Source: a bacterium (GTDB taxonomy: Bacteria > UBP6 > UBA1177). From it: 64,000 nt of DNA. The notes beneath the pieces were generated by a model. That model did no database searches, was not told the DNA's origin, and worked only from the letters and a program-made list of their open reading frames with translations. The first letter of the stretch is position 1. Each line of letters begins with the position of its first letter. Below are positions 3,749-63,097 of this stretch, one piece after another. A program made the translations under genes and the position numbers. The stretch spans positions 16,052-80,051 of the forward strand of contig JAGCXM010000005.1 of NCBI GenBank assembly GCA_017961325.1. The letters are read 5' to 3'.

Positions 3749-3776
3749 TTGACATAGTTTTTTTCCGCTTTATCAT
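3749..3776 (+). promoter_or_regulatory. sigma70-like promoter of smpB operon (TTGACA-N16-TATCAT)
   Basis: Consensus -35 and near-consensus -10, 30 nt upstream of the smpB ATG. Confidence 0.6.
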
Positions 3777-3805
3777 ATTTGGTTTTTGATTTTTTGGTAA
3801 CTGAA

Positions 3806-4261
3806 ATGGACAGAATCGTATCGGTCGCAAAAAACAAAAAAGCTTTCAGAGCTTATGAAATCCTTGACAAACTGGAAGCGGGCATCGTTCTGCAGGGAAC
3901 GGAGATAAAATCGATCCGCGACGGCAATATTTCTTTCAGAGACAGCTTCATTGATATCGTAAACGGTGAAATGTGGCTCACGGGCTTTTATATCGCGCCT
4001 TACACCGCCGGAAGCATCTGGAATCACGCTTCCGACAGGCGCAGAAAACTGCTTCTCAACAGAAAAGAAATCAGAAAATGGGATGCTAAAGTGCGTGAAA
4101 AAGGCTTTACGGTAGTTCCGATCGAACTTTACATCAAAAACGGAAAGGCGAAAATACTGATCGGGCTTGCACGCGGCAAGACTTCATTCGACAGAAAGGA
4201 TGATCTGAAAGAACGGGAAATCAGAAAAGACAGCGAAAGATTTACTGAAAAATACAGATGA
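3806..4261 (+). CDS. smpB: SsrA-binding protein SmpB
   Basis: NKKAFRAYEILDKLEAGIVLQGTEIKSIR, RKLLLNRKEI, ARGK...DRKDDLKERE. Confidence 0.97.
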   Translation: MDRIVSVAKNKKAFRAYEILDKLEAGIVLQGTEIKSIRDGNISFRDSFIDIVNGEMWLTGFYIAPYTAGSIWNHASDRRRKLLLNRKEIRKWDAKVREKGFTVVPIELYIKNGKAKILIGLARGKTSFDRKDDLKEREIRKDSERFTEKYR

Positions 4262-4638
4262 ACACGCGTGAAACGGGAAATGAAGCCGAGACTTTCGCAG
4301 CGGACTGGCTTTTTAAAAAAGGCTGGGAAATTCTTGACCGGAATTTCTGCATGAAAGGAGGAGAGCTCGACATAATCGCAAAAAAGGGAGACATTCTCGC
4401 TTTCGTCGAAGTGAGAAGCTGGGAACGCCAGTTCTGGGACGGCGGAACCCCGCTTGAAACGATACACCCTGCAAAGATAAAACATATAATAAAAACAGCA
4501 CTTTATTATATTCAAAGCAGGAAAATCCGGATGCAGGACTTCAACATCCGATTCGATGTTGCAGGACTCATAAAAAAGGATGACGGCACTTTCGATATCA
4601 ACTATGTCGAAGCCGCTTTCGATGCAACGGGGTACTGA
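4258..4638 (+). CDS. yraN: YraN family (UPF0102) endonuclease-like protein
   Basis: G-x-EAETFAADWL, ILDRNF, GGELDIIA, LAFVEVR, IRFDV. Confidence 0.92.
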   Translation: MNTRETGNEAETFAADWLFKKGWEILDRNFCMKGGELDIIAKKGDILAFVEVRSWERQFWDGGTPLETIHPAKIKHIIKTALYYIQSRKIRMQDFNIRFDVAGLIKKDDGTFDINYVEAAFDATGY

Positions 4639-4639
4639 A

Positions 4640-5434
4640 ATGGCGGGAACTCTTTTTGTAACTGCGACTCCTATCGGAAACATGGGTGACATCACGTCCA
4701 GAGCGGTTTCCGTGCTCGAAAGCTGCGACATCGTGCTTGCCGAAGACAGCCGTGTTTCAGGGAATCTACTTAGCCGGCTCGGAATAAAAAAACCGATTTT
4801 TTCATACCACAAATTTACCGAAAAGAAGTTTCTTGAGCAGCATATCGAAGAGCTCAAAAGCGGAAAAAACATAGCTATCATCAGTGATGCCGGAACTCCT
4901 GCTGTGAGTGACCCCGGAAAATTTTTAGTCCGGGCGGCTCTTGACGAAAATATTCCGGTCGTGCCGGTTCCGGGTGCAAGTGCCGCGGTTTCGGCATTTT
5001 CATGCTGCGGAAGTATCGAAAACTCGTTCGTTTTTGCAGGTTTTCTCCCTTCAAAGGGGGCTGAAAGGGTCAGCGAATGCGAAAGATTCCTCTCTTTCGG
5101 ACTTCCTGTCGTTTTTTACGAAGCACCGACAAGAATAAAAGATCTGCTTGAAATGATTAAAGAAAAGTGTTCGAGAATAGTTGTCGGGCGCGAACTTACG
5201 AAGCAGTTCGAAGAAATTTTCGTCTATACCGGCGGTGAAATTAAGGAGAAAGGGGAATTCACGATAGTCGCAGAACCTCTGAAAAAAGAGGAAAAAGTTG
5301 CAGAAATCGATGAAGAACTGATCGATTTGATTGCAAAATCCGGAATTTCGGCTAAAACTGCCTGTGAAATTGCGGCGAAGGTTTATCCCGAGCTGAAGAA
5401 AAACGATTTGAAAAAGTTTTTTATGAATAAGTAA
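4640..5434 (+). CDS. rsmI: 16S rRNA (cytidine1402-2'-O)-methyltransferase
   Basis: LFVTATPIGNMGDITSRA, AEDSR, ISDAGTPAVSDPG, VFYEAPTR, RELTKQFEE, KGEF. Confidence 0.95.
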   Translation: MAGTLFVTATPIGNMGDITSRAVSVLESCDIVLAEDSRVSGNLLSRLGIKKPIFSYHKFTEKKFLEQHIEELKSGKNIAIISDAGTPAVSDPGKFLVRAALDENIPVVPVPGASAAVSAFSCCGSIENSFVFAGFLPSKGAERVSECERFLSFGLPVVFYEAPTRIKDLLEMIKEKCSRIVVGRELTKQFEEIFVYTGGEIKEKGEFTIVAEPLKKEEKVAEIDEELIDLIAKSGISAKTACEIAAKVYPELKKNDLKKFFMNK

Positions 5435-5447
5435 CTTATTGATTTGA

Positions 5448-6476
5448 TTGGAGATTCAATTGGAAGTCGTCCGCAGATTCAGAAATCACTACCTTCTTTA
5501 CTATTACCTGCTTTTCCTCTGCATTTTAGGTTCGTGCAATCTCAAAAATTCACATCAGGACCCGGAAGAGAGGGAAGGAGTCGAGGATATCGACGAAGAT
5601 TACGGCGAAAATGATGAGGATATTGCCGGATTCGATGCGGCAGAAACCGGAAACGACACCGATTTTGACGAAAAAAGCGATATGGAAGACAATGATCATG
5701 GCATTGCTGCAGATGACGATGTTTTTGCAGATGACTATTCCGGAAGGGATTTTCCCGATATGACCGGAACCTGGGTTAATCTTACGATTTTCAAAGGTTC
5801 GGCAAAGGTCCCTCTTCTTGGTTCAACCCTTCCTGCCTGGGCGGTAATGGTTTCAAAAGTCGACATATATTCGCAGGAAAACGGTACTTTGAAAGCGCAC
5901 ACTGAAATGTGCCGCCTTAAAGCTGGAACGGCAACTGATTTGGTTTATCCGTATTTGCCGGACAGCTATGCTGAAAGTCTCGGAAACGTGGATAAAACAT
6001 TTTATCTTTCGTACGGCGGAAACGGTGAAGTCAGATTCCGTCAGGACAAGTTGTGGGAAGTGCGCTCGTGTACGCTTAACGATCCTGAAAACGATTCTCT
6101 TCCGACCGACATCAACGACGAAAGGGTTTTTGATGCCGATAACTCAGGAATGAACGGACTTTATATGGGAATGGTCGGAAAAGCTAGCGGCAGAGCCGAA
6201 ATCGTGCAGAAGGTAAGTACTATACTTGACGGAGAGTTCAACGAAAACGGTGAAATTCACGGTATTACGACATGGTTCGAAGCCCAGAGCGTTCTTTGGA
6301 CAGATACTTTTCTGCTTGAAAACGGTGCACCTACTTCTCCGGCAGGTGCCGATCCGAATGAAAGCGTTTTTATTTTCAAGAGAATAGATTCTTCGTGGGA
6401 CTGCACGGCTGTAAAAGAAAACAGTGCCGCACTTTTCCCCGAACAGGCTGCACTTTATCCGAATGAATTTAAATAG
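5448..6476 (+). CDS. hypothetical lipoprotein with acidic stalk (start may be TTG at 5460)
   Basis: Hydrophobic segment ending LGSC; D/E-rich linker; DPENDSLPTDINDERVFDADNSG motif. Confidence 0.75.
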   Translation: MEIQLEVVRRFRNHYLLYYYLLFLCILGSCNLKNSHQDPEEREGVEDIDEDYGENDEDIAGFDAAETGNDTDFDEKSDMEDNDHGIAADDDVFADDYSGRDFPDMTGTWVNLTIFKGSAKVPLLGSTLPAWAVMVSKVDIYSQENGTLKAHTEMCRLKAGTATDLVYPYLPDSYAESLGNVDKTFYLSYGGNGEVRFRQDKLWEVRSCTLNDPENDSLPTDINDERVFDADNSGMNGLYMGMVGKASGRAEIVQKVSTILDGEFNENGEIHGITTWFEAQSVLWTDTFLLENGAPTSPAGADPNESVFIFKRIDSSWDCTAVKENSAALFPEQAALYPNEFK

Positions 6477-6485
6477 GAGGAAAAA

Positions 6486-7523
6486 ATGAGAGTTCTTATC
6501 ACCGGCGGCGCAGGTTTTTTCGCGCTTCACATGACAAAAAAATGTGTTGAAATGGGTTGTGACGTTACGCTTCTCGACATTGCCGAATACCATGCCGAGG
6601 ATTACGACAAATCGGTCAAACTTGTAAACGGAGACGTCCGCGATGAAAAGAAAATGGACGAACTCATTTCTCAGACAGACTGGGTCATCCACGCTGCGGC
6701 AGCTCTTCCTCTTGCAACGAGAAAGGAGATTTTCTCGACAAATGTTGACGGCAGCAGAAACGTTCTTTCGCTCTGCTACAAGCACAAGATAAAAAGAGTA
6801 GCCGTAATCTCATCTACTGCGGTTTACGGCGTTCCCGACCATCATCCGCTTTTTGAAACGGACAAACTTGAAGGTGTCGGCAACTACGGCGAAAGCAAGG
6901 TCGCACTTGAAGGGATCTGCAACGAATTCCGCGAAAAAGGGCTCTACATTTCGACGATCAGACCAAAAACCTTCATCGGAACTTACCGCCTCGGCGTTTT
7001 CCAGATCCTTTACAACTGGGTCGAGGAAGGACACAAGATCCCGCTCATCGGAAACGGCAAAAACAGATACCAGCTTCTTGAAGTCGACGATCTCTGCGAC
7101 GCGGTTTATCTCGCACTTTCGCACGAAGGCGACGACGCGAACGACATTTTCAACATCGGCGCGGTCAGCACGCTCACCGAAAACGAGTATGTCGGAGCAC
7201 TCTGCGAATATGCGAAAAGCGGTTCAAGAGTAATGCATACTCCGGTCTGGCTTGTAATTCCGGCACTCACGATTTTTGAAAAACTTCATCTTTCGCCGCT
7301 TTACAAGTGGGTCTACGGCACTGCTCACACAGACAGTTTCGTTTCCGTCGACAAGGCCCGTAAAGTTCTCGGCTGGGAACCGAAATACGACGAATCTCAG
7401 GCTCTGATAAGAAGCTATCAGTGGTATATCGACAATAAAGGTTCGATTGCGAAAGGAACCGGAACGACCCACAGAATCGCATGGGCGCAGGGCATTTTAG
7501 CACTTTTCAAAAAATTTCTTTAA
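6486..7523 (+). CDS. NAD-dependent epimerase/dehydratase (extended SDR)
   Basis: ITGGAGF Rossmann motif, SSTAVYG, catalytic YGESK; AGGAGG RBS. Confidence 0.93.
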   Translation: MRVLITGGAGFFALHMTKKCVEMGCDVTLLDIAEYHAEDYDKSVKLVNGDVRDEKKMDELISQTDWVIHAAAALPLATRKEIFSTNVDGSRNVLSLCYKHKIKRVAVISSTAVYGVPDHHPLFETDKLEGVGNYGESKVALEGICNEFREKGLYISTIRPKTFIGTYRLGVFQILYNWVEEGHKIPLIGNGKNRYQLLEVDDLCDAVYLALSHEGDDANDIFNIGAVSTLTENEYVGALCEYAKSGSRVMHTPVWLVIPALTIFEKLHLSPLYKWVYGTAHTDSFVSVDKARKVLGWEPKYDESQALIRSYQWYIDNKGSIAKGTGTTHRIAWAQGILALFKKFL

Positions 7524-7569
7524 TACGAATCAATTAAAAGGTTTTAATAAAATCAGGTGCTTTGTCGGT

Positions 7570-8391
7570 TTAGAGGCTTAAAGACTGTCTCGGTTTGTTA
7601 GGCCGCGGATTGTCATAAGTTGCAGTAAAATCGAAATTGACTTCGACTTCATCGTCGCTGTCGCCTTGCGGAAAAACGGTATCTTCAAGTTTTTCTATGG
7701 TGCAGTTCACAACGTATTTATCCGTGAAAGTATTGTTTCTGAGTTTGATGTCATAGACTTCGCCGTCGGGAGCAATCATGAATTTAAGAGTGAATTTGCC
7801 CTTCATTCTAGGGTTTTTAGCCTTCCGGGACTCGTAGCATTCGCGGAATTTCTTCATCTTTGCCAAAGACGCAATCGTTTTTGAACGCAAATTGTTTTTT
7901 GCAACTTTTGCCTTATTCTGCTTTGTCATTTGTTTCGGTTTGTCCTTGACGACTTTATACGAAAGCCGGTAATCGGCACTTCTAGGATTTCCTGGACGAA
8001 CTCCTATCGACTCGATCTCTTCTCCGACGCATTCTGCAATTTTAAGTGCTTCCTTTGATTGAAGTTCCCCTATCCGGATATCTTCAAAAAAACCGTCGTC
8101 GTCAATTTCAAGTTCAAAATCGATGTCGATGTCTTCCGCTCGGCCGATTTTGACCGTGTTCCGGTAACAGTCGATAAAATCAATGTCGAGAAGCCTCATT
8201 TTGCGAACGACTTCGGAATCTTTCGAATACCCGTAAAGATGAAGCATTTCGCCGCCTTCCATTTCTGCTGAACCGATTTCGGAATTAGTTACTCTTTTTT
8301 CCGATTTTGCCTTTTTGGAAGTGCCGCCGGACGAGCAGGAAAATGAAAAAACGACACAGAAAACTGACAGAACAATCAATAAACGTTTCAT
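7570..8391 (-). CDS. lipoprotein with two AgmX/PglI-type (TonB_C-like) C-terminal domains
   Basis: Lipobox SFSC; FRECYESRKAKNPRMKGKFTLKFMIAPDGEV...VVNCTIEKLEDTVFP, preceded by a similar FIDCYR...IAECV unit. Confidence 0.75.
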   Translation of the reverse strand: MKRLLIVLSVFCVVFSFSCSSGGTSKKAKSEKRVTNSEIGSAEMEGGEMLHLYGYSKDSEVVRKMRLLDIDFIDCYRNTVKIGRAEDIDIDFELEIDDDGFFEDIRIGELQSKEALKIAECVGEEIESIGVRPGNPRSADYRLSYKVVKDKPKQMTKQNKAKVAKNNLRSKTIASLAKMKKFRECYESRKAKNPRMKGKFTLKFMIAPDGEVYDIKLRNNTFTDKYVVNCTIEKLEDTVFPQGDSDDEVEVNFDFTATYDNPRPNKPRQSLSL

Positions 8392-9039
8392 TCAACCTCT
8401 GATTATTTTTACAAGTTCTCCTATAGATTCAAAAACCGGAGCTCCGGTATTTCTTAATATTTCCGCATTGTTATGGCCTCTGGAGACAAGTGCCGCATCG
8501 CAGCACAGAGCTTTTGCAGTTTCATAGTCGTGACAGGTGTCGCCTACAAAGAGAATCTCTCTTTCAGAATATCCCGATTTTTCGAGAATTTTCTTGCAGA
8601 GATGGGTTTTTCCTTCGGCGTAATAGTTTTCAATTCCTTCAATAAAACGGAAATATTGGGAAATCCTCAGCATTTCGACATGTCTGTTCAGCATTTCGTG
8701 TTCCATCGCCGAAAAAATCCCGAGTTCGATTCCGGATTTCCGGAGTTCTTCCAAAGTCGGAACGATATCCGGGAAAAGTTTTACCCTGTCAACGTTGGAA
8801 ATGTACAATTCCCCGAATTCTTTAGTGATTTCTTCCCATTCGTTGCTTACGTCCAAGCCTAACTCCCTGTAAAACGTAGAAACGGGAAATAAAAAATTTT
8901 CCCTGTAATATTCAAGGGTTATCGGTTTAATTCTTCTTTTTTCCAGAACACCGTTTATCGCATTGAGATTAAGCCAGACATCGTCGATCAGAGTGCCGTT
9001 CCAGTCGAAGATGATCATTTTTTTGTTGTCGTAGATCAT
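8392..9039 (-). CDS. HAD family hydrolase (phosphoglycolate phosphatase-like)
   Basis: IIFDWNGTL motif I; VGDTCHD motif IV. Confidence 0.92.
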   Translation of the reverse strand: MIYDNKKMIIFDWNGTLIDDVWLNLNAINGVLEKRRIKPITLEYYRENFLFPVSTFYRELGLDVSNEWEEITKEFGELYISNVDRVKLFPDIVPTLEELRKSGIELGIFSAMEHEMLNRHVEMLRISQYFRFIEGIENYYAEGKTHLCKKILEKSGYSEREILFVGDTCHDYETAKALCCDAALVSRGHNNAEILRNTGAPVFESIGELVKIIRG

Positions 9040-9042
9040 TCT

Positions 9043-9627
9043 TTACTCCACGGCATAGCTTATAAGCTCGGTAGTCGTCTGAGGATAAACCTTGTCTTCG
9101 CGGACGTCTTCAAGAACTGTGACTATTTTGACGATACCGACTTTCAATGCGAAATAATGGTATGTGTGCAGCACTTTTTTATCCGGCAGTTCCACGGACG
9201 AGTGAACTTTTATCGTTCCCTCGAAAGTTCCGGCGGGAACCGTAACGGTCTCGTCGACTCCTTCGGTTTTTCTGATTTCGCGCGTTTTCTGATTTACGAT
9301 CGTAATCCACGATTCCCTTTGGAGCGGGAACATCAAAAGATAACGTTCAGTGTCGCGGATTCCGTGTCTGTCGACCTTGAGTTTGCCGCCCTTGTTGTCA
9401 AGAAACCATTCGCCGTCAGTTCCGACGATGCTGATCTCGTTTTCGCCGCTCTGACCGAAATAGTTGACCTTGTATTTCCAGCTGTTGCCGACGGCAAGCG
9501 GGAAATAGCGCATAGCCGACTCTCTGTAATCGGAAAGATGGTAAGGCTTATCCTTTTTTTTGTCTGCGCTGCACGAAATCTGAACGACCGAAATAAACAC
9601 GATAAAAAGCAAAAGCAGTTTTTTCAT
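9043..9627 (-). CDS. hypothetical lipoprotein
   Basis: GAGG RBS; lipobox QISC; YFPLAVGNSWKY and ETVTVPAGTF motifs typical of beta-rich lipoproteins. Confidence 0.8.
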   Translation of the reverse strand: MKKLLLLFIVFISVVQISCSADKKKDKPYHLSDYRESAMRYFPLAVGNSWKYKVNYFGQSGENEISIVGTDGEWFLDNKGGKLKVDRHGIRDTERYLLMFPLQRESWITIVNQKTREIRKTEGVDETVTVPAGTFEGTIKVHSSVELPDKKVLHTYHYFALKVGIVKIVTVLEDVREDKVYPQTTTELISYAVE

Positions 9628-9663
9628 AACAACCTCTTTAAAGACCCAAATTTTTGACGAAAG

Positions 9664-9691
9664 ATTATAATGATTTGCAAAAAAAGAGCAA
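9664..9691 (-). promoter_or_regulatory. sigma70-like promoter (TTGCTC-N16-TATAAT)
   Basis: Perfect -10 upstream of the 9627 ATG. Confidence 0.55.
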
Positions 9692-9798
9692 TTTAATGTT
9701 GAATAGAGATTTCTGTGCAAAATTTCGGGTGATTTCCCTCCTTGACTCTGCATGTATAAAAAATAAACTAATCAGTTTTTAATTCTTCGGAGATACAC

Positions 9799-9957: not shown

Positions 9958-10014
9958 TTTAAGTGAAATAAATTTATTTTTTGGTTATTGTTCGCAAGGA
10001 GGTGATTTTTCACA

Positions 10015-12129: not shown

Positions 12130-12212
12130 TTATCTTTATATTTTTAAAAAATTTGAGTATTTAATATTGCTGAGTAGTATGAAGCGTTTGTTTTTGAAGT
12201 GGTTTTTTTTGC

Positions 12213-13866: not shown

Positions 13867-13867
13867 T

Positions 13868-14530: not shown

Positions 14531-14549
14531 ACAATTCAGAGGTGTTGAA

Positions 14550-17500
14550 ATGAAAATTGTATGTTCAAAATGTAACACAAGCTACCAGATAGACGATTCA
14601 CGGATTCCCGAAAAGGGGCTTCTGGTGAAATGTTCGGCTTGTCAGAACAAATTCAGAGTTTTTCTTGAAAAGGAAGACGAAGGGGATTCGAAGGATCCGG
14701 ATCTTCTTGAATCTGAAAAAAGCGAACCGAAGGAATCGACCGAATCCGGCATCAAGGAAGAGTCTGTTCAGGAAGAGATTCAGGAAAAACCGGTTGATTT
14801 CAGTGCCGGCAGCGAAGCTCAGTTAGATAAAAAAGAGGAAAAATCCGATATCGATTTTTCAAATGACCGCTTTGATTCCGATGACGAACTTTTTGCCGAC
14901 GATGCTTCCAGTAATTCTAATGAAAAACTTGATTTCGACGATCTGTTTTCTGATGCTCCTGCTTCCTCCGGAACTTCAGCGAAAACTTCCGGCAACAGTG
15001 CGAAAAACCTTTTTGATGACGATGAAGGCGATGATTTGTTCAGCGATCTTTCGGATGACATAAAGAAAAAGAAGAATGATGCCGAAGACTTTTTGAAAGA
15101 ACTTTTTGATGGAAATCCGGAGCCGTCGGTTGCATCTCAGACTGTTTTTTTTAAAAACAGAAAAACAGGCAAAATAACGGGTCCGGTCGAAGAATCTCAG
15201 GTAGACCGGCTTATGATGAGCGGCGAAATTTCGGAGGACGACGACATCAGCTATGACGGCGTTAACTGGGACAGTGATTCCGCTAAAGGAGCGGAAAAAT
15301 CTGATTTCGAAGATGAAAAAATAGACGATAATTTCGGCAGCGTTCTGTTTGAAGAGGGAACGATGATTCACAAAGGCGATGCCGAAGAGATAGATTTGAG
15401 CGGTTCGGACGAAGGTGACAATGTCGATCATGTCTACATTCCGGATGAATTCAGCGAATCCGGTGCAGGAAAACATAAAAAGGCGGCGAAGAAGGGCAAA
15501 GGTCGCGGCAATTCGATTCTTTTTTATGCCGGAACGACAGTTGCAACTATCGCGATTCTTGCGATTATCGGCGGCGGAGCCTACTATTTTTACGCAAAAC
15601 GCAGCAATTCTGCGGATATTCTCGACAACATCAGCGAGCAGATTGCGGTAAATACGGGAACTTTGGCCGATGTCCGCGAAGCTTTGGACAAAGATACGCC
15701 GGAAGACTACATGAACAGTATCGGAATCCTGAAACAGTACATAAAACCTGATGATTCCGCTCCTAGTGCGGTCGGTCTTGACGGCCAGGTCAAGATGAAT
15801 CTTCTGATTTCATACAACAGAAGGATTGAATCTTCGGCTTCGATAGACGACAAAATCACGACCGCTATGAAAAAGGCGGCCGGAAATGCCGATCTCATCA
15901 AGGCAAAGGCACTTTATCTCTACGATCAGAAACAATACGACGAAGCGGCGGCTCTTCTGCAGCCTCTCATCGACAAGAGCGATCAGGAGGTTTTCTATAT
16001 TTTAGGTTTGATTGCAAGCGGAAAACAGGATCTTGAAAAGGCGGAGAACTTCTTCAATACCGGTTTCATTCAGGGCGGCGGAAAAAGCGTTAAAATCATG
16101 TATGCTCTGGCAAATATGAAGTTCCAGAACGGCGATACGCAGTCTGCGATGGCTTTCATCAACAGAATCATTTCCGAAGCGCCGAATTACATGAAGGCTT
16201 ATCTTCTGAAGTCGAGAATTTTGATGAACGGCGACATTGAAGAAGCAGACAGATTTTTGAAAGGAGTCGATACAAACATCGTCGCTAAGGCGGAAGACTT
16301 CCAAAAAGCTGAATATTATCAGATGCTTGCATCTATAGCAAACAGGCGCGGATTTATGAAGGACGCGATAAAATATTATGAAAAAGCGGTTGAAATCAAC
16401 CAGAACGATACCGATGCCATAACGAAAATCGCCGATTTCTACGTTCAGATTTCAGATTCGACGAAGGCGATGGAATATTACGACATGGCTTTGAAGCTTG
16501 ATCCGAAATATTCTGCGGCGATCATCGGAAAAACCGAAGTTTATGTTCTTCTTTCCCAAAAGGAAAAGATTTATCTCGAACTTGCAAAACTTGACCTTAA
16601 AACTCTGACCAATCCGCAGCTTCTGGCGCGCGTTGCGAAAATTTATTCCAACATCGGTGATAAGACAAAGGCGCTGGAATTCTACGATCTGGCGATAAAG
16701 TCTGATTCGTCCTATCTTGAGTCTTATATAGCCAAGTCTCAGATTTTACTGATGGATTTCAATAAGGTTAAAGAACTTGATCAGATTCTGGTCGTTCTTG
16801 AAAAATTGGGGAAGGACCGTTACCCGTATCATTTGATTAAGGCTATTATCGACCACAAAAACGCTGATTACAAGAGTGCGGCGGAACATTTTAGACTTGC
16901 GGAAGAGAAAAATTCCGCAGGTGACGAAAGAGTCTACTTCTTTTACGGTGAATTTTTGAAGGATCAGCAGAGGTATGCCGAAGCGTCGGCCATGCTTTAC
17001 CGCGCATACAAAGTCGATCCGGAGAATTACGATTATATGCAGTCGTATGTCGACAGCCTTGAAAAGGAGGGAAAATGGAAAAACATTATTTCGCTGCTTG
17101 AATCTAAAACTTTTATTGAAAAGAGAAAATACAGAAGCTATTCGTCTCTTGCAAATGCCTATTTCCACGTCAAAGAATACGATAAGGCCGTTGCAAGCAT
17201 CGATCATGCTCTTGAACTCAGCTCGCAGAACAGTTCCAATTACTATTTGAAAGCGAAAATTCTCTATACGATGGGGCGTTATGCCGACGCTGAAAAAGAG
17301 ATTGACACCGCTGTCGTTCTCGATATGAAAAATTTCGACAACTATATGCTTTATGCGAGAATTCTTTCGAAACGCGGCGATTTCAAGGGAGCAGTCGAGA
17401 AAATCGAAGCTGCGGAAAAACTTGATCCGCATGATCAGGATCTTCTGCTTATGAAAGGCGTCATCTACAAAAATCTGGATGATTACAGGAACGCATTGAA

Positions 17501-22248: not shown

Positions 22249-22420
22249 AACTTCCTCCAATATAAAATTAACAACTTTCCGAATCCGGAAAAAACGCAGT
22301 ATTAAAACCAAATATTGATTTAAGTCAAGAGCAGCTTTGCTTCCCGACTTTCATTTTTGTTGATTTTTTATGGTTTTTGCGTAGAATTTTCCGTCTTTTG
22401 TGATGATAAAGGGGGCTTTT

Positions 22421-25871: not shown

Positions 25872-25947
25872 TAAAAAAGCAACCCTCTTGATTCTCTGAC
25901 AAAAATTCATAAAATATACTGTTTTTATTCGTTATTTGGAGGCTGAT

Positions 25948-27489: not shown

Positions 27490-27588
27490 ATATTACCTAA
27501 AAAAAATTGCATTTTATCTAAAATTTATAAAATGATGCGCTTGTGTCATGTTGAAAAGTTTTCTAACTTGATTTTTTTGGAGGATGTT

Positions 27589-41319: not shown

Positions 41320-41415
41320 GGGCGCCTCCGAAGAACAAACTATAGAAAAATAAATATTTTTAGGAAATTTTCAACAAATTATTTGAATTTTGTGGTGAAT
41401 TTTAAGATTCAGAAG

Positions 41416-43152: not shown

Positions 43153-43307
43153 TTTAACCTCCGAAAAACAATAAACTTAAAAAGCGGCTAATTATTCTCT
43201 CTAAATTTTTTAAATCAAGAAAATCGGTATTTCTTATGAAAGCGAAACGGACAAAAATTAAGGAAATATCCGGAAATTAAGCCGTAGAAACGTGTCAGAA
43301 AACGTCT

Positions 43308-44345: not shown

Positions 44346-44402
44346 AAGACCTCGCAAAAAAAACGAAATAGGATAGTCATTTTGAAAAAATTGTCAAAAA
44401 AG

Positions 44403-45566: not shown

Positions 45567-45630
45567 ACCTCACCTCTCAATCCCCTCTCCACTGTGGAGA
45601 GGGGAAGACGGTTTTCCGTCGGGGTGAGGT
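45567..45630. repeat. REP-like GC-rich branched palindromic element
   Basis: Outer IR acctcacc/ggtgaggt encloses tcccctctcca-ctg-tggagagggga and gacgg-tttt-ccgtc. Confidence 0.75.
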
Positions 45631-45743
45631 CAAACCGCCGCATTGTATTCAATTTTTATAAAATTGCGAGAGAAGAGGCATAAAAAATTTGTCTTTTCAT
45701 CCGTTGTTCTTAATATGCCGGGACTTTTGATAATGGAGATACC

Positions 45744-51292: not shown

Positions 51293-51463
51293 AATATCCT
51301 CCGCAAAAAAGCACAAAAGAATAGTCCCGGCAGAGAAAAATGCAATGAAAAATTGAAAATCGGAAAAGTATCCGTTCTGCCGCGAAAAAATGGCCCCTTT
51401 ATTTGACTGTTAAAAATTTTTAAGTATAGAAAATCAGTTTTTTTGATGTTTGCGGAGATTGAA

Positions 51464-53047: not shown

Positions 53048-53056
53048 GGGGAAGAA

Positions 53057-53245: not shown

Positions 53246-53252
53246 GTGAAAA

Positions 53253-55559: not shown

Positions 55560-55691
55560 AAAGTTTTACATCAATTTAATAAAATTTGACATTTTTATAT
55601 TATTTTAATACCTTTCACGCCAAGTTCATTCGGCGGTTGTTCGAATGTTTATATATATTTTTCCCGGAGGAGCCGTAAGGTTTTTATATAA

Positions 55692-56249: not shown

Positions 56250-56263
56250 ACAAGGAGAACAAA

Positions 56264-57817
56264 ATGCTTAATTCAATAATTTTTCTTATTATTGGAATTT
56301 TGCTCGGTGCCGCACTTTGGGCGATGTCAAGATCGCTAGTTTTCAAAGAGAAAATGGAAAAAGCCCAGAAAGAACTCAGCAACGCGAAAGATGATGCCGC
56401 AAAGGTTGTGAAGGAAGCGGAAATCAAAGCTCAGGAGATCATTCTCGAAGGCAAAAAAGAGACTGAAAATTCAAAGAACGAACTTCTGAAGGAGTTCAAG
56501 GAACGCGAAAAAAGGCTCAACAAGCGCGAAGAACAGCTTACACAGCGCGACGAACTCAACATCGTCAAGGAGAAGGAACTGAAAGCTATCGAGAAAAAGC
56601 AGAAGGATGACGAGATTTTCCTCGACAACCAGCGCGTCCAGCTTGACGAAAAACTTGCCGAAGCCAACAGCGAGCTTGAAAGAATCGCAGGAATGACTCA
56701 GGAAGAGGCGAAGGAAGTACTGATTCAGAAAATCGAAGACGAAGCGAAACACGATGCCGCGAAAAAGATCAAAGCCATTGAAGACGCGATGGTCGAAGAC
56801 GCCGAAAAGAAGAGCAAGGAGATTCTTTCGACCGCCATCCAGCGCTATGCAGGCGAATATGTCGTTGAAAATACCGTCACGACAGTCAGCCTTCCGAATG
56901 ACGAGATGAAAGGCAGAATCATCGGCCGCGAAGGAAGAAACATCCGCGCCATTGAGTCGATTACCGGCGTTGATCTCATCATTGACGATACTCCCGAAGC
57001 AGTCGTAATCAGCAATTTCAACCCGATAAGAAGGCAGATTGCCTCTCTTACGCTTCAGAAACTCATCGCCGACGGCAGAATCCATCCCGGCAGAATCGAA
57101 GAAGTTTTCGATGCCTGCACGAAAGAGGTCTGGAAAGCGATCAAAGAGGCCGGCGATCAGGCTGTTTTCGACCTCGGAATCCACAAACTCCATCCCGAAC
57201 TCGTTCTTCTTGTCGGTCGTCTGAGATACAGAACAAGCTACGGTCAGAACGTCTGGAAACACTCCGTTGAGGCAGCTTTCCTTGCAGGTGAGATCGCGGC
57301 TGAGCTCGGTTGCAGCGCAAACAGCATCAAAAACGCGAAACGTGCCGGACTTCTTCACGATATAGGCAAGGCTGTTGACCACGAAATCGAGGGAAGCCAT
57401 GCTTCAATAGGCGCGAAACTTGCAGAAAAATACGGCGAGCAGCACAGAATCGTCGCTGCGATCGCGGCTCACCACGGCGAAGTCAAGCCCGAAACAGTTC
57501 TCGACTTCATCGTTTCAGCGGCCGACGCCCTGAGCGGCGCAAGGCCCGGCGCAAGAAGAGAAATGGCCGAGGCTTACGTCCAGAGACTTACCGACCTTGA
57601 AAATATTGCGAACTCCTTCAACGGCGTTGACAAATCGTTCGCGATCCAGGCAGGAAGAGAACTCCGCGTCATGGTTGACACCGCGAAAGTCAACGATGAA
57701 GACGCTTACACGCTGGCAAACGACATCGCGAAGAAAATCGAAACCGACCTTTCATATCCGGGTCAGATAAAAGTCATCGTTATCAGAGAAACAAGAGTTA
57801 TAGCTACCGCGCAGTAA
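56264..57817 (+). CDS. rny: ribonuclease Y
   Basis: TM + coiled coil; KH motif MKGRIIGREGRNIR; RTSYGQNV..HS, LLHDIGKA (HD); ARPGAR, YPGQIKV. Confidence 0.97.
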   Translation: MLNSIIFLIIGILLGAALWAMSRSLVFKEKMEKAQKELSNAKDDAAKVVKEAEIKAQEIILEGKKETENSKNELLKEFKEREKRLNKREEQLTQRDELNIVKEKELKAIEKKQKDDEIFLDNQRVQLDEKLAEANSELERIAGMTQEEAKEVLIQKIEDEAKHDAAKKIKAIEDAMVEDAEKKSKEILSTAIQRYAGEYVVENTVTTVSLPNDEMKGRIIGREGRNIRAIESITGVDLIIDDTPEAVVISNFNPIRRQIASLTLQKLIADGRIHPGRIEEVFDACTKEVWKAIKEAGDQAVFDLGIHKLHPELVLLVGRLRYRTSYGQNVWKHSVEAAFLAGEIAAELGCSANSIKNAKRAGLLHDIGKAVDHEIEGSHASIGAKLAEKYGEQHRIVAAIAAHHGEVKPETVLDFIVSAADALSGARPGARREMAEAYVQRLTDLENIANSFNGVDKSFAIQAGRELRVMVDTAKVNDEDAYTLANDIAKKIETDLSYPGQIKVIVIRETRVIATAQ

Positions 57818-57818
57818 A

Positions 57819-58604
57819 ATGACTTTCAGAATCCTCGCTTTAGGCGACATCGTCGGCAGACACGCAAGGAATTTCGTTAAAGAGCAGCTTCCTAAAATTA
57901 TTGAAGAAAATTCAGTGGATTTCGTCATTGCAAACGGCGAAAACACCTCCGGCGGAATGGGACTTCTTGAAAAGCATGCGACTCTTCTGCATTCTTGCGG
58001 AGTAGACGTCATCACTTCGGGAAACCACATCTGGAACAGAAACGAGATCTATTCATTCATCGACAGAATGCCTTACGTTCTGCGCCCGGCAAACTATCCT
58101 GACGATCTTCCGGGAAAAGGTTCAGTCGTCGTAACACACGAAAAAACGGGGATGAAAGTCGGCGTTCTCAATCTTTTGGGAACGGTTTTCATGCCGCCGA
58201 TAGACTCTCCTTTCAAAAAAGCGCTGACCGAAATCGAAAAACTGCGTTCGGACGGTGCAGACATAATAGTTCTCGACTTTCACGCCGAAGCAACTGCCGA
58301 AAAAGAGGCTTTCGGTTTCTATCTTTCCGATAAAATCGAACTTTTCTTCGGTACCCACACCCACGTCCAGACTTCCGACGAGAAAATAATCAGCGAAAAA
58401 ATGGGCTACATCACCGATCTCGGCCGCTGCGGTTCATTCTTCTCAGTCATCGGTTTCAACGAAAAAGAGAGCATCACAGGCTATCTCTCGAACATCCCTC
58501 AGCATTTCGTTCCGGCGAAAAACGATATCAGAATCGAAGGGATCGTTGCCGATTTCGAACTGAATCCGAGCCGCTGCGTCGGCATAAAAAGGATAAGAGT
58601 CTGA
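57819..58604 (+). CDS. ymdB: YmdB/TIGR00282 metallophosphoesterase
   Basis: GDIVG, NGEN, TSGNHIW, RPANYP, DFHAEAT.EK, GTHTHVQT. Confidence 0.94.
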   Translation: MTFRILALGDIVGRHARNFVKEQLPKIIEENSVDFVIANGENTSGGMGLLEKHATLLHSCGVDVITSGNHIWNRNEIYSFIDRMPYVLRPANYPDDLPGKGSVVVTHEKTGMKVGVLNLLGTVFMPPIDSPFKKALTEIEKLRSDGADIIVLDFHAEATAEKEAFGFYLSDKIELFFGTHTHVQTSDEKIISEKMGYITDLGRCGSFFSVIGFNEKESITGYLSNIPQHFVPAKNDIRIEGIVADFELNPSRCVGIKRIRV

Positions 58605-58629
58605 ATTTATTGCCTTAATTGGGTAACAG

Positions 58630-58659
58630 GAATACGGCGCATTCCGCGCCGACTTATTC
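58630..58659. terminator. hairpin between convergent genes (putative terminator)
   Basis: cggcgc-attcc-gcgccg flanked by gaata/tattc. Confidence 0.5.
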
Positions 58660-60560
58660 TAATTCATCCAGTTTTTGACGTCGTTGAAGAATTTTTCAGG
58701 CTGATTTACCGAAACGCTGTGGGAGCTTTCGGGATAGAACGGGAAGGTTACGGTCGCAGACTGCCCGTCCTTGAAATGAACGGTGAACGATTCTTCACCG
58801 GTCTCAACGCTTGAAACGCTGTTGAACTTTTTAGCAGCTTCGGGAGTTGCTTCCGCATAAAGAATAATGTCTTCTTCCGCCTTGGTGATGAAAGTTTTTG
58901 CGGTTCTTATGTTTTCGAGGAACATTTCGCCGTTGACATCATCGTAAGGATCGACTGAAGCATTGTAAAATGTTGAAAGTACAGTGTCGTTGGTATCGAC
59001 ATAGTATTCATCGTAACTCGGAAGAGTACCGAAAACGCTCTCCAGGTCGCCGCTTGAAAGCGGATGCACGTTGCGCTGCTCAATGCGTGCATTCAAAATG
59101 ATCTTTATGCTTTCGGGAACATTTTCGAGTTTGTCCAAGTCTGCAATGTTTCTGGAATATCCGTTTCCGCTCGCGTATCTGAAAGCACCGGTTCTGTTTG
59201 CCGCGTAAAGGGCGTCGATTTTGGCCGGATCATTCATTATGAACTGTTTGAACATCGTGAACTGAAGCATTTTCGCGATTCCGTAGTCGGTGTAGTCGAA
59301 AAGCCAGTTGTATTCTCTGCGGTAGGAATAGATGTCGCGTCCGGCGTTTCGTACGTAATTTACCGCTCTGTTGTATTTGTCGCAGTTCCACGAAGAACCG
59401 CAGGGCGTATATTTTTTGCCTGTTTCCTGCTGAATTTCATAAAGCGGGCTGCCGCTTTTTTCAAGGACTTCACCGACTGCATCAAGCTGCTGCTGCCCCA
59501 TGGCGAGCGGCTGGATCATGATCTGTCTGCCGAACTGTTTTGCAACCGCTTCTTTCGATGGCATTCCGCTGACCGACTGATCGATTCCCTGAAAGTGGGC
59601 GGCAATCTCGTTGAAAAGCGCCTGATCGTAGAAAACCCTGTTTTTCTGAGCATAGTCGGCTACATTAAGCAGAATGTTGAGCACCGCAGTCGTTCTTGTT
59701 CCGCCGTAGCTCTCGCCTGCAAGGATAACAGGATTCGACTTTATCTGCGGATGGGCTTCCAGAAAGCGGAGAATTACGCGGATGAAGTCCGCCGCATCTA
59801 CGAAAACGTTGAAATTCGCGGTCGAGAAATAGTTGGAACGGGCACTTCTGTTGGAAGGATTGTCAACTATGCCGTAGGAAAATCCCGTTTGTCTCGCATC
59901 GATGTAAAGAAGGTTGCCGAGCTTGTTCCAGTTCCACTGGTTGTCAGCAACACCTTCACCGGCGAATGCCTGATCCGCCGTTTTTTTGGAAGTGTTGTAA
60001 AGAAAAATAAGCGAAGAAGAGGAACCTGGACCGCCGTTGTACAGAACGAAAAGCGGTTTACTCTCAGGATTTTCGTCCGCAGGCTGGAAGTCGTACCACA
60101 TTTTAGCCCGGCCGCTGTTTGTGCTGCTGTTGCTGAGAGTATAGCTGTTTTCCTCCAGATCGATGAAACCCGATTCATAGTCGAGACCTTCGACAATAAC
60201 GACGGGATCGTCATCCGGTGCGGTATCAGCGTCATTGTTGTTGTCGTCAATCTCTTCCGAATCATTGTCATGTGTCTGAGTGTCAGACGTGTCGTCATCA
60301 GTTTTAGCATCTTCATCATTTGAATCGGCATCATCGGCAGGATCAGATGAATCTCCGTCGTTTATTACAGTGTCGGTAAAATCATCGTCACTGTGCGTTT
60401 TGTCGTCATCACTCTGCGTGGTCGTGTCAGTTTCGTCAGAATCATCAATGAAATCAGCATCTTCATTCGTGCTGCCATGATTGACCATTTTTGAACCGTT
60501 ATCACATGAAACAAGGAAAAATGCACATGAAAAAGCTAAGACGACAAAAAATTTCTTCAT
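58659..60560 (-). CDS. S10 family serine carboxypeptidase lipoprotein
   Basis: Lipobox LVSC; D/T stalk; YNGGPGSSS, LLYIDA.QTGFSY, nucleophile AGESYGG, C-terminal SSH. Confidence 0.88.
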   Translation of the reverse strand: MKKFFVVLAFSCAFFLVSCDNGSKMVNHGSTNEDADFIDDSDETDTTTQSDDDKTHSDDDFTDTVINDGDSSDPADDADSNDEDAKTDDDTSDTQTHDNDSEEIDDNNNDADTAPDDDPVVIVEGLDYESGFIDLEENSYTLSNSSTNSGRAKMWYDFQPADENPESKPLFVLYNGGPGSSSSLIFLYNTSKKTADQAFAGEGVADNQWNWNKLGNLLYIDARQTGFSYGIVDNPSNRSARSNYFSTANFNVFVDAADFIRVILRFLEAHPQIKSNPVILAGESYGGTRTTAVLNILLNVADYAQKNRVFYDQALFNEIAAHFQGIDQSVSGMPSKEAVAKQFGRQIMIQPLAMGQQQLDAVGEVLEKSGSPLYEIQQETGKKYTPCGSSWNCDKYNRAVNYVRNAGRDIYSYRREYNWLFDYTDYGIAKMLQFTMFKQFIMNDPAKIDALYAANRTGAFRYASGNGYSRNIADLDKLENVPESIKIILNARIEQRNVHPLSSGDLESVFGTLPSYDEYYVDTNDTVLSTFYNASVDPYDDVNGEMFLENIRTAKTFITKAEEDIILYAEATPEAAKKFNSVSSVETGEESFTVHFKDGQSATVTFPFYPESSHSVSVNQPEKFFNDVKNWMN

Positions 60561-60677
60561 TTTTATCTCCTGAAAAAAACTACATACTCACAAATCTGAA
60601 TTAGCAGAAAACGGGAGATTTTAAGTGCTTTTGGGAAAAGGGCAAGATTTTAGCTGATAATATGTAGGCTTTGATTC

Positions 60678-62210
60678 CTACTTTTCCGGTTTCATCGTCG
60701 GGAAAAGAATGACGTCGCGGATGCTCGGCGAATTGGTCAAAAGCATGACAAGTCTGTCGATGCCGATTCCCTGTCCTGCTGCCGGCGGCATTCCGTATTC
60801 AAGAGCGCGGATGTAGTCGCTGTCCATGTCGATCGTTTCGTCGTCGCCTGCTTTCTTAGCTTCGACCTGAGCTGCGAATGAGTCATACTGCTGTTTCGGG
60901 TCGTTGAGTTCGCTGAACGCGTTGGAAAGCTCTCTTCCTGCTACGAAAAGTTCGAATCTGTCGGTGTATTCCTGATTTTCGTCGTTTCTGCGGGCGAGCG
61001 GGCTCACTTCGGTCGGATATTTCGTGATGAAAGTGGGCTGAATGAGGTTTCCTTCGACGAAATTGTCAAAGAATTCCATGATGATTTTGTAGCGTGACAT
61101 TCCTTCAAGCGCTGCCTTGTCGAGACCGTTTTTAACGCCGATCTCAATGAGTTTTTCTCTGTCTTTGAGATCTTCTTCGGTGCAGACGCCTGATTTTACT
61201 ATACTTTCTTCGACCGTCATTCTGTTCCACGGAGCTTTGAAATCGATCTTCATGCCGTCGTATTCGACTTCTGTCGTTCCGTTTATCTCGACGCAGAGCC
61301 TGCTTATCATCTCCTGGGTGAAGCGGATCTGGTCTTCGTAAGTCGCATACGGCCAGTAGAACTCCATCATCGTGAATTCGGGATTGTGCTTGAGGTCCAT
61401 TCCCTCATTCCTGAAGCTGCGGTTGATCTCGTAAACTTTTCCCAATCCGCCGACAAGAAGCCTTTTGAGGTAGCACTCGGGAGCTATTCTCATGTAAAGC
61501 GGGATGTCGAGCGCGTTGTGGTGGGTGATGAAAGGTTTTGCAGCAGCGCCGCTTACCAAGGGGTGCATCATCGGAGTCTCGACTTCCATGAAACCCGCGT
61601 TGTTCATGTAGTTTCTGATGAAATTGATGATTTTCACTCTCTTTTTGAAAGTCTCTCTGACATCGTCATTCATAATGAGGTCAAGGTAACGCTGCCTGTA
61701 GCGGAGCTCTTTATCGGTAAGTCCGTGAAATTTCTCGGGAAGCGGTCTGATATTTTTTGTGAGGAGCTCAGTTTTGTGAGCCAAGATCGAGTATTCGCCT
61801 GTTCTCGTAACGAAAACTTCGCCTTTTACCCAGACTATATCGCCGACATCGAACGCCTTTTTGAATTTCGCGAAGTCTTCACCAAGAAAATCTTTCGCAA
61901 AAAGTATCTGTATCGAACCTGTCTCGTCCTTGAGGTTTGCAAAAGCAAGTTTTCCCATGATGCGCAGGAACATGATCCTGCCTGCAACTGCGAATTCAAG
62001 CGGCTTTCCGGTCTGCTCAAGCTCTTCTTTGGTCTGTGTCTTGCAGTATTCGATTACCTTTTCAACAGTGGAATCGGGAGCGAAAGTGTTCGCATAAGGA
62101 TGGATCCCTTCAGCTCTCAGTGTATTTACTTTCTCTTTTTTGCGGGCGATGATCTCGTTTTCGTCCATCTGCGGAACCGTTTTCTGTTCCTGTGCTTTGT
62201 TTTCAGCCAT
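60678..62210 (-). CDS. lysS: lysine--tRNA ligase (class II)
   Basis: LPEKFHGLTDKELRYRQRYLDL, FRNEG..HNPEFTMME, SPLAR, ALEYGMPPAAG.GIGIDR. Confidence 0.97.
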   Translation of the reverse strand: MAENKAQEQKTVPQMDENEIIARKKEKVNTLRAEGIHPYANTFAPDSTVEKVIEYCKTQTKEELEQTGKPLEFAVAGRIMFLRIMGKLAFANLKDETGSIQILFAKDFLGEDFAKFKKAFDVGDIVWVKGEVFVTRTGEYSILAHKTELLTKNIRPLPEKFHGLTDKELRYRQRYLDLIMNDDVRETFKKRVKIINFIRNYMNNAGFMEVETPMMHPLVSGAAAKPFITHHNALDIPLYMRIAPECYLKRLLVGGLGKVYEINRSFRNEGMDLKHNPEFTMMEFYWPYATYEDQIRFTQEMISRLCVEINGTTEVEYDGMKIDFKAPWNRMTVEESIVKSGVCTEEDLKDREKLIEIGVKNGLDKAALEGMSRYKIIMEFFDNFVEGNLIQPTFITKYPTEVSPLARRNDENQEYTDRFELFVAGRELSNAFSELNDPKQQYDSFAAQVEAKKAGDDETIDMDSDYIRALEYGMPPAAGQGIGIDRLVMLLTNSPSIRDVILFPTMKPEK

Positions 62211-62250
62211 TTTTTCCTCCATTAAGCCTCTGCTCTTCAAAAGCCGCGGC

Positions 62251-62278
62251 ATTTTAAGGATTTTTAGAAAAAATGCAA
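62251..62278 (-). promoter_or_regulatory. sigma70-like promoter of lysS (TTGCAT-N16-TAAAAT)
   Basis: Directly upstream of the lysS RBS. Confidence 0.55.
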
Positions 62279-62318
62279 GAGTTCAGGCTATCAGTTTTCG
62301 AGTTAAATTCGTGGGTTT

Positions 62319-62732
62319 TCAAAGTTTTTTCAGAGCTTCACCAATACTGATTGCCGGAATTTTAGAGTTTTTGAAATCTTTGAGATTTTCGGTAACGATG
62401 TAATCAAGATCAGCATTCTCAGCACATTTCATCTGTAATCCGTCTTCGAGATCGAAAAATGCCGGATCGTTAAGAACTTCAAAAAAATCTTCCTGATCTT
62501 CAGCAATTACTTGAAAGTTTGAAACTATCAAAAGTAAAAACTCTCTTCTGTCTGCAACCGAAAAAAACTTTCTCGTGATATAAAAAATATCTGTCAGCGA
62601 GTGTGCGGAAACAAAACCGTTAAGTTTTTTGGCAAGACACTTTTTTACAAGCAGCGAAGCTTTCTCGTGAAACGGATTATTCGGCGTGAGATAATAAAGA
62701 ATAATATTCGTATCAACAAAGATATTCTTCAT
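62319..62732 (-). CDS. PIN domain (VapC-like) toxin
   Basis: IFVDTNIIL, DIFYI, DLEDGLQ, IVTENLKDF. Confidence 0.9.
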   Translation of the reverse strand: MKNIFVDTNIILYYLTPNNPFHEKASLLVKKCLAKKLNGFVSAHSLTDIFYITRKFFSVADRREFLLLIVSNFQVIAEDQEDFFEVLNDPAFFDLEDGLQMKCAENADLDYIVTENLKDFKNSKIPAISIGEALKKL

Positions 62733-62971
62733 ACCCCATACCTCTCGTCAAGGTATTCAAGATATTCCTGCCGTGCATCGATCTGTTTGTCACTTTTGAT
62801 GCAACCATTGAATTTTTCGAACAACCTCATCGTTTCTTCTTTAGACATTCCGCCTTTTTCTTCATGCTTGTTTTCATTCATGTTTCCGAGCGAAACAACT
62901 AAATTGTAGATTATCGTCTGCTGCTCTGTAGTTAGTGCACTCAACGCTTTTTCGAAAACCTCGAAGCTCAT
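62729..62971 (-). CDS. putative antitoxin
   Basis: Small ORF with GGAGGTG RBS, overlapping the PIN start (ATGA); ends EYLEYLDERYG. Confidence 0.75.
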   Translation of the reverse strand: MSFEVFEKALSALTTEQQTIIYNLVVSLGNMNENKHEEKGGMSKEETMRLFEKFNGCIKSDKQIDARQEYLEYLDERYGV

Positions 62972-63097
62972 TTTCACCTCCATTCCGTAAAAACCAGTAT
63001 ATTATAGTCAAATTTTGGAAAAATGCGAGAGGAAATTATAGAAATTGATGATGCGAATTTACCACAGCACTGCGATGAGTCCGGTGAACATCGAATT

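Follow-up and report, generated by a model that had tools for sequence, protein, structure and literature searches.

Promoters with a 16-bp rather than a 17-bp spacer between the -35 and -10 boxes in a genus of uncultured candidate-phylum bacteria

Promoters of the sigma70/SigA type carry a TTGACA-like -35 box and a TATAAT-like -10 box, and the 17-bp spacer between the two is treated as a near-universal bacterial constant, assumed by promoter predictors and in genetic-tool design. A survey of 49 species with mapped transcript starts reports spacers mostly of 16–18 bp, with 17 predominant, using a model that was trained on E. coli and favours 17 (PMC12641261). A second survey gives a median spacer of 17 in each of 49 genomes and, for the 67 phyla with enough calls, finds none significantly below the equal-use line for 17 (bioRxiv 10.64898/2026.09.23.753901); neither of these two recent cross-phylum surveys reports an exception to 17. 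Word pairs found without supervision likewise amount to 17 bp, both for Petrotoga (TTGAC(N)18TATAAT) and for Clostridium kluyveri (TTGAC(N)19ATAAT) (PMC5217627). Here we analyse the promoters of a 64,000-nt stretch of bacterial DNA (positions 16,052 to 80,051 of contig JAGCXM010000005.1, GenBank assembly GCA_017961325.1), which we call the window. A first-pass annotation, made from the letters of the window, had listed 19 pairs of -35 and -10 hexamers in it, 16 with a spacer of 16 bp, two with 17 and one with 15, and had taken the 16-bp spacing to be a property of the lineage. The coordinates, letters and spacings of all 19 pairs are correct (19/19), and we confirm that the 16-bp spacing is genome-wide, intergenic and far beyond chance.

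The spacer peak does not depend on gene annotation. When TTGNNN-N(s)-TANAAT, where s is the spacer length, was counted on both strands of the whole host genome, there were 270 matches at s=16 and 79, 82 and 84 at s=15, 17 and 18, with 123 and 143 at the coding-phase neighbours s=13 and s=19. Restricting the count to intergenic DNA with a simple mask of open reading frames (ORFs) sharpened the picture: 185 of 1036 TANAAT words had a TTG at s=16, and 16, 30 and 14 had one at s=15, 17 and 18. Inside ORFs we found no peak at 16, where the count (82) lay below its phase neighbours. We also ran position-weight matrices of both hexamers over 951 upstream regions, using no spacer prior and a cut-off at the 95th percentile of shuffled regions. 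By this measure 270 regions passed, 175 of them at 16, 23 at 17, 13 at 15 and 15 at 18, compared to 2–9 per spacer in the shuffled regions. Reading the pattern backwards gave 2 matches against 115 real ones, and TTGACN-N16-TANAAT occurred at 60 sites against 4 in the reversed control. The genome-wide spacer histogram, set against shuffled controls as the first-pass annotation had suggested, has its single peak at 16; it is neither at 17 nor flat. All of these pattern counts detect mainly strong, near-consensus promoters.

Within the window, we scanned the two strands for T[TC]GNNN-N(s)-TANNNT with a G and a run of T after it, which returned 17 sites at s=16, 11 of which were already on the earlier list, and 1, 2, 2, 2, 2, 7 and 1 sites at s=13, 14, 15, 17, 18, 19 and 20. 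Two of the seven sites at s=19 are the same sites read three bases upstream. The window has 24 gaps of at least 40 nt upstream of genes, as judged with an ORF model, and a weight matrix of the hexamers alone passed 6 of these 24 upstream regions, a test of low power.

The G and T-run used in that scan belong to a downstream element that was not a criterion when the earlier list was drawn up. It follows the -10 box at 16 of the 19 listed sites, as against 392 of 5090 non-ORF positions of the window (7.7%). Across 185 intergenic sites, the position at offset 5 after the -10 box is C in 52%, offset 6 is G in 70%, and offsets 8–11 are T in 71–81%. Anchoring on TAnnnT-N5-G-N-TTTT alone, which is independent of how the list was picked, gave 486 sites; an upstream TTG was present at s=16 in 138 of them, at 17 in 21, at 15 in 8 and at 18 in 9, over a background of 3–15 per spacer. 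Among the 348 anchored sites lacking TTG at spacer 16, TCG stands in its place in 23, where composition predicts about 5, and is the second commonest word. TCG for TTG is a real minor variant of the -35 box, and the window has two cases, at 45669 and 63028.

The boxes themselves are familiar. TAnAAT or TAnnnT words tied to TTG at one fixed distance constitute a TATAAT-like -10 box, and after the fixed TTG the next three positions of the -35 box favour A/C, C/A and T/A, so that it resembles TTGACA, a feature of sigma70 promoters. A TG extension of the -10 box is not part of the pattern, being present at only 12/138 and 24/348 sites. The C-G at offsets 5–6 fits a pyrimidine-purine start step, and the G at offset 6 is most likely the start base. 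Of 174 intergenic sites, 98 have a T-run that begins 7–9 nt past the -10 box. A Shine-Dalgarno-like word and a start codon follow, with a leader of 20–39 nt in 93 of the 174, and an ORF starts within 250 nt, mostly within 60 nt, of 133 of 137 strict sites.

Genes for stable RNAs follow the same spacing. For the 22 tRNA or tmRNA genes where a box of the TTG[AC] type lies within 90 nt, 16 was the single best spacer in 14, tied with 17 in three, gave way to 17 in two and to 15 in one, and two were poor matches. These tRNA promoters often have CCGCCG discriminators, and about half, judged by eye, have the T-run; because it occurs at tRNA promoters too, the T-run is not solely a translation signal. 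In about ten tRNA promoters the TTG lies 41–45 nt before the mature 5' end, and from this distance the leaders cut off by RNase P would be about 8–12 nt long.

Taken together, the promoters of the genus follow a single rigid plan, which comprises an A/T-rich stretch, a -35 box TTG(A/C)(C/A)(T/A), a spacer of exactly 16 bp, a -10 box TAnAAT, a 5-nt C-rich discriminator that ends in C, a presumed start G and a run of at least 5 T, with a Shine-Dalgarno word and the start codon about 20–40 nt from the presumed start base. It is found in intergenic DNA before protein and tRNA genes in every genome of the genus.

To see how widely the rule holds, we compared 39 species genomes of the phylum, namely 15 of the genus, 8 of other genera of the family, 13 of the other families of the order and 3 of a sister family outside the order. 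The full motif occurs 36–108 times per genome in the 15 genus genomes and 1–10 times per genome in the other 24. For the spacer we counted TTGACN-N(s)-TANAAT against a reversed-pattern control (real/control), at s=15, 16, 17 and 18 in turn. The genus gave 59/61, 781/57, 101/77 and 76/78; the other genera of the family gave 83/111, 517/114, 231/144 and 70/122; the other five families of the order gave 71/71, 545/72, 361/96 and 90/76; and the sister family gave 56/48, 106/88, 199/112 and 66/45. The genus uses 16 only, the order favours 16 but also uses 17, and the sister family favours 17, while 15 is used by none of the four groups. Because the sister family shows a preference for 17, the count is able to detect that spacer; this family serves as a positive control, as do the word-pair counts reported in PMC5217627. 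Related genomes are not independent samples, and the gradient from 16 to 17 is a description rather than a statistical test. The first-pass view of the 16-bp spacer as a lineage property is borne out: it holds in all 15 genus genomes and more weakly across the order, and gives way to 17 in the sister family. A T-rich transcript start was also seen in 400-kb samples of two relatives, at a looser position.

One genome from another family of the order (G005), which carries the beta' zipper histidine described below, was considered as a 17-preferring exception and set aside, since its listed matches fall mostly into two or three multi-copy families. These promoter families share near-identical 17-bp spacers, a TG-extended -10 box (TGATATAAT), a T-run and a Shine-Dalgarno word, and they recur about a dozen times each, often near contig ends; they may be a mobile or paralogous cassette.

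The window is part of contig 32 of a 2.35-Mb genome in 48 contigs that is 97.9% complete. Because the nearest RpoD genes in public genomes come from metagenome-assembled genomes of rumen and gut, the host is an uncultured member of a candidate phylum. The G+C content of the window is 45%, and its genes are ordinary housekeeping genes, including smpB, rsmI, a PcrA/UvrD helicase gene, coaBC, coaD, aspS and lysS, and those for RNase Y, dapF, prmA, nadD and NAD kinase. The 16-bp plan stands before all kinds of genes within it. An Rfam scan of the window found no RNA family. The 19 listed sites, together with one that the earlier list lacked, are as follows (-35 box, spacer length, -10 box, then what comes after it).

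1915..1959, plus strand: promoter of a 536-aa ORF (start 1974); TTGATT-17-TAAAAT, then G and a T-run; a rare 17-bp case with the full downstream element.
3749..3792, plus strand: smpB promoter; TTGACA-16-TATCAT, then G and TTTTT.
9648..9691, minus strand: promoter of operon 9753-7570 on the same strand; TTGCTC-16-TATAAT, then G (offset 6) but no T-run.
9742..9785, plus strand: promoter of a helicase gene (PcrA/UvrD type); TTGACT-16-TAAACT, then G and TTTTT; paired back to back with that at 9691.
12153..12196, plus strand: coaBC promoter, absent from the earlier list; TTGAGT-16-TAGTAT, then G and a T-rich run.
22285..22328, minus strand: promoter of a peptidyl-prolyl isomerase operon; TTGACT-16-TTTAAT, then G and TTTTTT.
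22360..22403, plus strand: promoter of a 559-aa ORF; TTGATT-16-TAGAAT, then G and TCTTTT; divergent from the 22328 promoter.
25888..25931, plus strand: promoter of the gene for a 517-aa choice-of-anchor-L protein; TTGATT-16-TAAAAT, then G and TTTTT.
27507..27549, plus strand: promoter of a KH-domain protein operon; TTGCAT-15-TAAAAT; the sole 15-bp case.
41331..41374, minus strand: promoter of a Ser/Thr kinase operon; TTGAAA-16-TATTTT; weak -10 box.
43175..43218, minus strand: aspS promoter; TTGATT-16-AATAAT, then G and CTTTTT.
44354..44397, minus strand: promoter of a 349-aa ORF; TTGACA-16-TATCCT, then G and TTTTTTTT.
45626..45669, minus strand: promoter of a RidA-family gene; TCGCAA-16-TACAAT, then G and GTTTG.
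45689..45732, plus strand: promoter of a 611-aa ORF; TTGTCT-16-TAATAT; divergent from the 45669 promoter.
51302..51345, minus strand: promoter of the prmA operon; TTGCAT-16-TATTCT, then G and CTTTTTT.
51403..51446, plus strand: promoter of a 534-aa ORF; TTGACT-16-TATAGA, then G (offset 7) and TTTTTTT.
55586..55630, plus strand: doubtful site before the 5-formyltetrahydrofolate cyclo-ligase and RNase Y genes; TTGACA-17-TACCTT, without the G and T-run element.
60602..60645, minus strand: promoter of a 633-aa ORF; TTGCCC-16-TAAAAT, then G and TTTTC.
62235..62278, minus strand: lysS promoter; TTGCAT-16-TAAAAT, then G and GCTTTT.
62985..63028, minus strand: promoter of two small ORFs, 62983-62319; TCGCAT-16-TATAAT, then G and GTTTTT.

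It is because it lacks the downstream element that we regard the 17-bp site at 55586 as doubtful. There are four back-to-back promoter pairs, with one member on each strand, and they serve divergent genes (9648-9785, 22285-22403, 45626-45732 and 51302-51446), with their -35 boxes 14–52 bp apart.

The RidA promoter has a setting of its own. Between it and the start codon lies a G+C-rich hairpin, CCCCTCTCC-loop-GGAGAGGGG (window 45575-45610, minus strand). The 40-nt stretch around this hairpin has many short matches at 83–93% identity across the genus genomes, with 17 places in one of them, and a similar hairpin place lies near position 38650 of contig C26 of the host genome; it looks like a small dispersed repeat. 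Comparison of the RidA region over 15 genus genomes showed that synteny breaks exactly at the intergenic region with the divergent promoters. The sequences upstream of RidA have turned over among these genomes, some being without a TTG box, and the gene downstream of the RidA promoter region is on different contigs in other species of the genus.

We infer that the listed sites are real promoters of a single primary sigma, RpoD. This is a 705-aa ORF that scores 349.6 bits against the RpoD-family model TIGR02393 (cut-off 354), and it is the sole group-1 sigma among the matches to that model; sigma-54 and extracytoplasmic function (ECF)-type sigmas were outside the search. The other matches to TIGR02393 were a 299-aa RpoH-like protein and a 149-aa protein with only a region-4.2-like end, in genome contigs C47:36649-37332 and C13:50760-50879.

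The first-pass annotation had proposed an altered sigma region 3–4 or an altered beta-flap spacing as the cause of the shifted geometry, and at the level of sequence neither was found. The best solved relatives of RpoD are proteobacterial RpoD chains. Its residues 429-692 align at equal length with residues 337-600 of E. coli sigma70, and against three other proteobacterial RpoD chains regions 2–4 show no gap and the helix that reads the -35 box is the same, canonical one. Regions 2–4 of the primary RpoD copies of the relatives were free of insertions and deletions in seven of eight, with one insertion in G001, and the RpoD proteins of the sister genera G004 and G005, whose 16/17 ratios differ, show only a few conservative changes. 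Nothing stood out among the sigma differences across nine relatives. The beta flap is without insertions or deletions, and the helix at its tip is identical to that of E. coli and of the proteobacterial chains aligned with it. Of the proposed shift in promoter geometry, the lineage-wide 16-bp rule stands and its sigma and flap causes are unsupported at sequence level; the change in spacing would lie outside the DNA-reading parts of sigma and outside the beta flap.

The best candidate we have for a cause is in the beta' subunit. A Tyr-Arg pair in the beta' zipper (Y34/R35 in Thermus, Y47/R48 in E. coli) is described as 'highly conserved', lies at contact distance to spacer DNA near -21 and is held responsible for zipper function in promoter use, according to a study of the zipper and the Z-element (Yuzenkova et al. 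2011, PMC3173786). The N-terminal 195 residues of the host beta' align with those of E. coli with a single one-residue gap near the end. Compared to the described zipper, the loop is otherwise conserved and the arginine is kept, but the tyrosine is replaced by histidine: N-Y-R-T in E. coli is N-H-R-T in the host. All 35 order genomes examined, the host included, have NHRT (35/35), and both of the sister-family genomes examined have NYRT (2/2). The histidine is rare elsewhere. Among the best 150 cluster representatives from a library of 1.84 billion proteins, the 137 that match the anchor pattern have 135 Tyr and 2 His at this position, and the 13 representatives outside the pattern add one further His. 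The Tyr-to-His change at the position of E. coli Y47, a contact of the core enzyme with the spacer, is our lead for a putative cause.

We think it possible, at a probability of roughly 0.45, that 16 bp is the length at which this lineage's transcription machinery performs best, its optimum being shifted by one base and narrowed in the genus. A more specific version, tentative and on its own rather unlikely, is a retuning of the core enzyme in which the rare beta' zipper histidine moved the optimum from 17 to 16, and the genus then lost its tolerance for other lengths and fixed the C-G start and the U-tract leader for almost all of its transcripts. Several points weigh against a shifted optimum and its proposed cause. 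The start base and the activity of the promoters are themselves deduced from sequence patterns, and weak promoters may use other spacer lengths. Sigma regions 2–4, the tip of the flap and the zipper and zinc-finger region outside this residue resemble those of E. coli, which prefers 17. The zipper change happened once, on a single branch, so that its link to the spacer is statistically a single coincidence. Moreover, the 16:17 ratio within the order ranges from about 30:1 to about 1.7:1 under the same histidine, and because of this variation the histidine cannot explain the strictness of the genus.

Two other readings would leave the enzyme as it is (ALTERNATIVES: kinetic selection of 16 bp; tighter DNA twist in vivo). 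A survey from 2025 argues that the diversity of discriminators in Gracilicutes serves growth-rate control (PMC12641261), and this lends weight to the first. Here the enzyme optimum would still be 17, and 16 bp would be selected because a promoter that is slightly off in spacing and has a G+C-rich discriminator forms open complexes of short life. On this view almost every gene would be sensitive to growth rate, ppGpp or starting-nucleotide level, like E. coli rRNA P1. The E. coli-like sigma, flap and most of beta' agree with this, and the C-rich discriminator ending in C-G, the tRNA promoters on the same plan with their frequent CCGCCG, and E. coli rrnB P1, which pairs a 16-bp spacer with a G+C-rich discriminator, all suit it as well. 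Strong constitutive promoters, however, should use 17 in that case, yet over the 15 genus genomes 17 is at control level (101 vs 77) and 16 is at 781 vs 57. The rule also spans all gene kinds in the window, and the distance from the -10 box to the presumed start is 6 nt, against 9 in rrnB P1. On balance we consider kinetic selection a doubtful explanation.

Tighter twisting of the DNA in vivo, through less negative supercoiling, ions or nucleoid proteins, could let 16 bp give an unchanged enzyme the register that E. coli has at 17, and the unchanged geometry-setting parts of sigma and flap agree with this. One base pair amounts to about 34 degrees by physical reasoning, and supercoiling sensitivity is reported to be set by spacer length (PMC8695583). 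The absence of gyrase was considered as a cause and ruled out, as gyrA is present and above its family cut-off; ordinary negative supercoiling is to be expected. The twist reading, which we hold improbable, also leaves unexplained the narrow tolerance in one genus and the differences between sister genera whose habitats are similar.

Copies of a dispersed repeat or mobile element, or sites read by another sigma, are a very improbable source of the signal. The 17-bp excess of G005, made up of multi-copy families, does show that repeats can mimic such a signal. In the host, however, clustering of 78-nt contexts at 75% identity put the 267 sites at s=16 into 266 clusters, and because of this the sites count as independent rather than as a repeat family; spacer sequences differ between sites. 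As for another sigma, the boxes match what the RpoD recognition helices read, and the two further proteins that TIGR02393 returned, in a search that did not extend to sigma-54 or ECF-type sigmas, are RpoH-like in one case and confined to region 4 in the other. An artefact of hand-picking hexamers in A+T-rich intergenic DNA is scarcely credible: several -10 boxes on the earlier list are weak matches, such as TATAGA, TATTTT and TACCTT, and a generic promoter scanner gave 33 sites, only slightly above a shuffle mean of 25.4, but the annotation-free and shuffle-controlled counts, which peak only at 16, refute it, and the independent downstream element at 16/19 sites against a 7.7% background argues the same way. 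Even taken together, the artefact, repeat and other-sigma readings are highly unlikely.

A genus that uses only 16, relatives that are intermediate and an outgroup at 17 bp form a natural series on the ruler between sigma regions 2 and 4, and offer, in this lineage, a natural test of the way a promoter is measured by RNA polymerase. The zipper Tyr-to-His change is a concrete residue that can be tested. If true, core-enzyme retuning would give the first natural example of a whole lineage shifting its -35/-10 spacer optimum for which the RNA polymerase core offers a candidate cause. The 16-bp rule is of practical use for predicting and building promoters of these uncultured rumen bacteria, and the fixed C-G start with its U-tract raises the question of what role a uniform 5' end has in transcription or in RNA fate.

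How do these promoters compare with known systems? The 19-bp optimum that separates TTTG from TAnnTTTG in Flavobacterium would correspond to 16 bp if measured between hexamers. Relative to the presumed start G, our promoters have their TTG at -33 and the -10 box at -11 to -6, as in the -33/-7 promoters of Bacteroidota and Chlorobiota. A preprint quotes TTG-N17-23-TANNTTTG and, for Chlorobaculum, the box TA(A/T/C)(A/T/C)(A/T)T (10.1101/172254). Unlike the Bacteroidota promoters, ours have TAnAAT and not TAnnTTTG as the -10 box; with the TAnnnT anchor the letters after the box are not TG (A-A-T at positions 4–6 of TAnAAT is imposed by the search). The sigma differs too, since the host RpoD has 705 aa, is of the proteobacterial type and has a canonical region 4.2, unlike the short, divergent Bacteroidota sigma.

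E. coli rrnB P1 has a 16-bp spacer, near-consensus boxes and a G+C-rich discriminator, with the start 9 nt after the -10 box. Our promoters resemble it and other stable-RNA promoters in the 16-bp spacer, in the near-consensus boxes and in the G+C-rich end of the discriminator (C 52%, G 70%), and the host tRNA promoters are alike in this. Unlike rRNA P1, the plan stands at ordinary protein genes genome-wide, and the presumed start is close to the -10 box.

The closest match is with sigma70/SigA promoters. Among these, PMC12641261 describes a 'start' element, pyrimidine-purine-pyrimidine, whose centre is 7 bp past the -10 box, and reports that the initial transcribed region frequently has a 5' T-tract in Gracilicutes. 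Word searches of the open-access literature returned no lineage with a 16-bp mode and nothing on the present lineage, which is no proof of absence. The start step and the T-tract are already known features, here extreme, and the 16-bp mode and its strictness are undescribed in the literature searched. A primary sigma with conserved regions 2.4 and 4.2 is present, and the sites are intergenic and point at genes; because the spacer mode is 16 and not 17, with 15, 17 and 18 at or near control level in all 15 genus genomes, we file these promoters as a variant of sigma70. Like the sigma70/SigA promoters of E. coli, B. subtilis and the 49 surveyed species, they have TTGACA- and TATAAT-like boxes in the same register, a pyrimidine-purine step where transcription presumably starts, T- and A-tracts within the spacer, a T-tract at the transcript start (as in Gracilicutes), a 5' leader of 20–49 nt and a primary sigma with identical recognition helices. 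Unlike them, they have a spacer mode of 16, not 17, with 15, 17 and 18 practically lacking in the genus, a presumed start 6 and not 7 nt after the -10 box, and a T-run that is near-universal and fixed in position.

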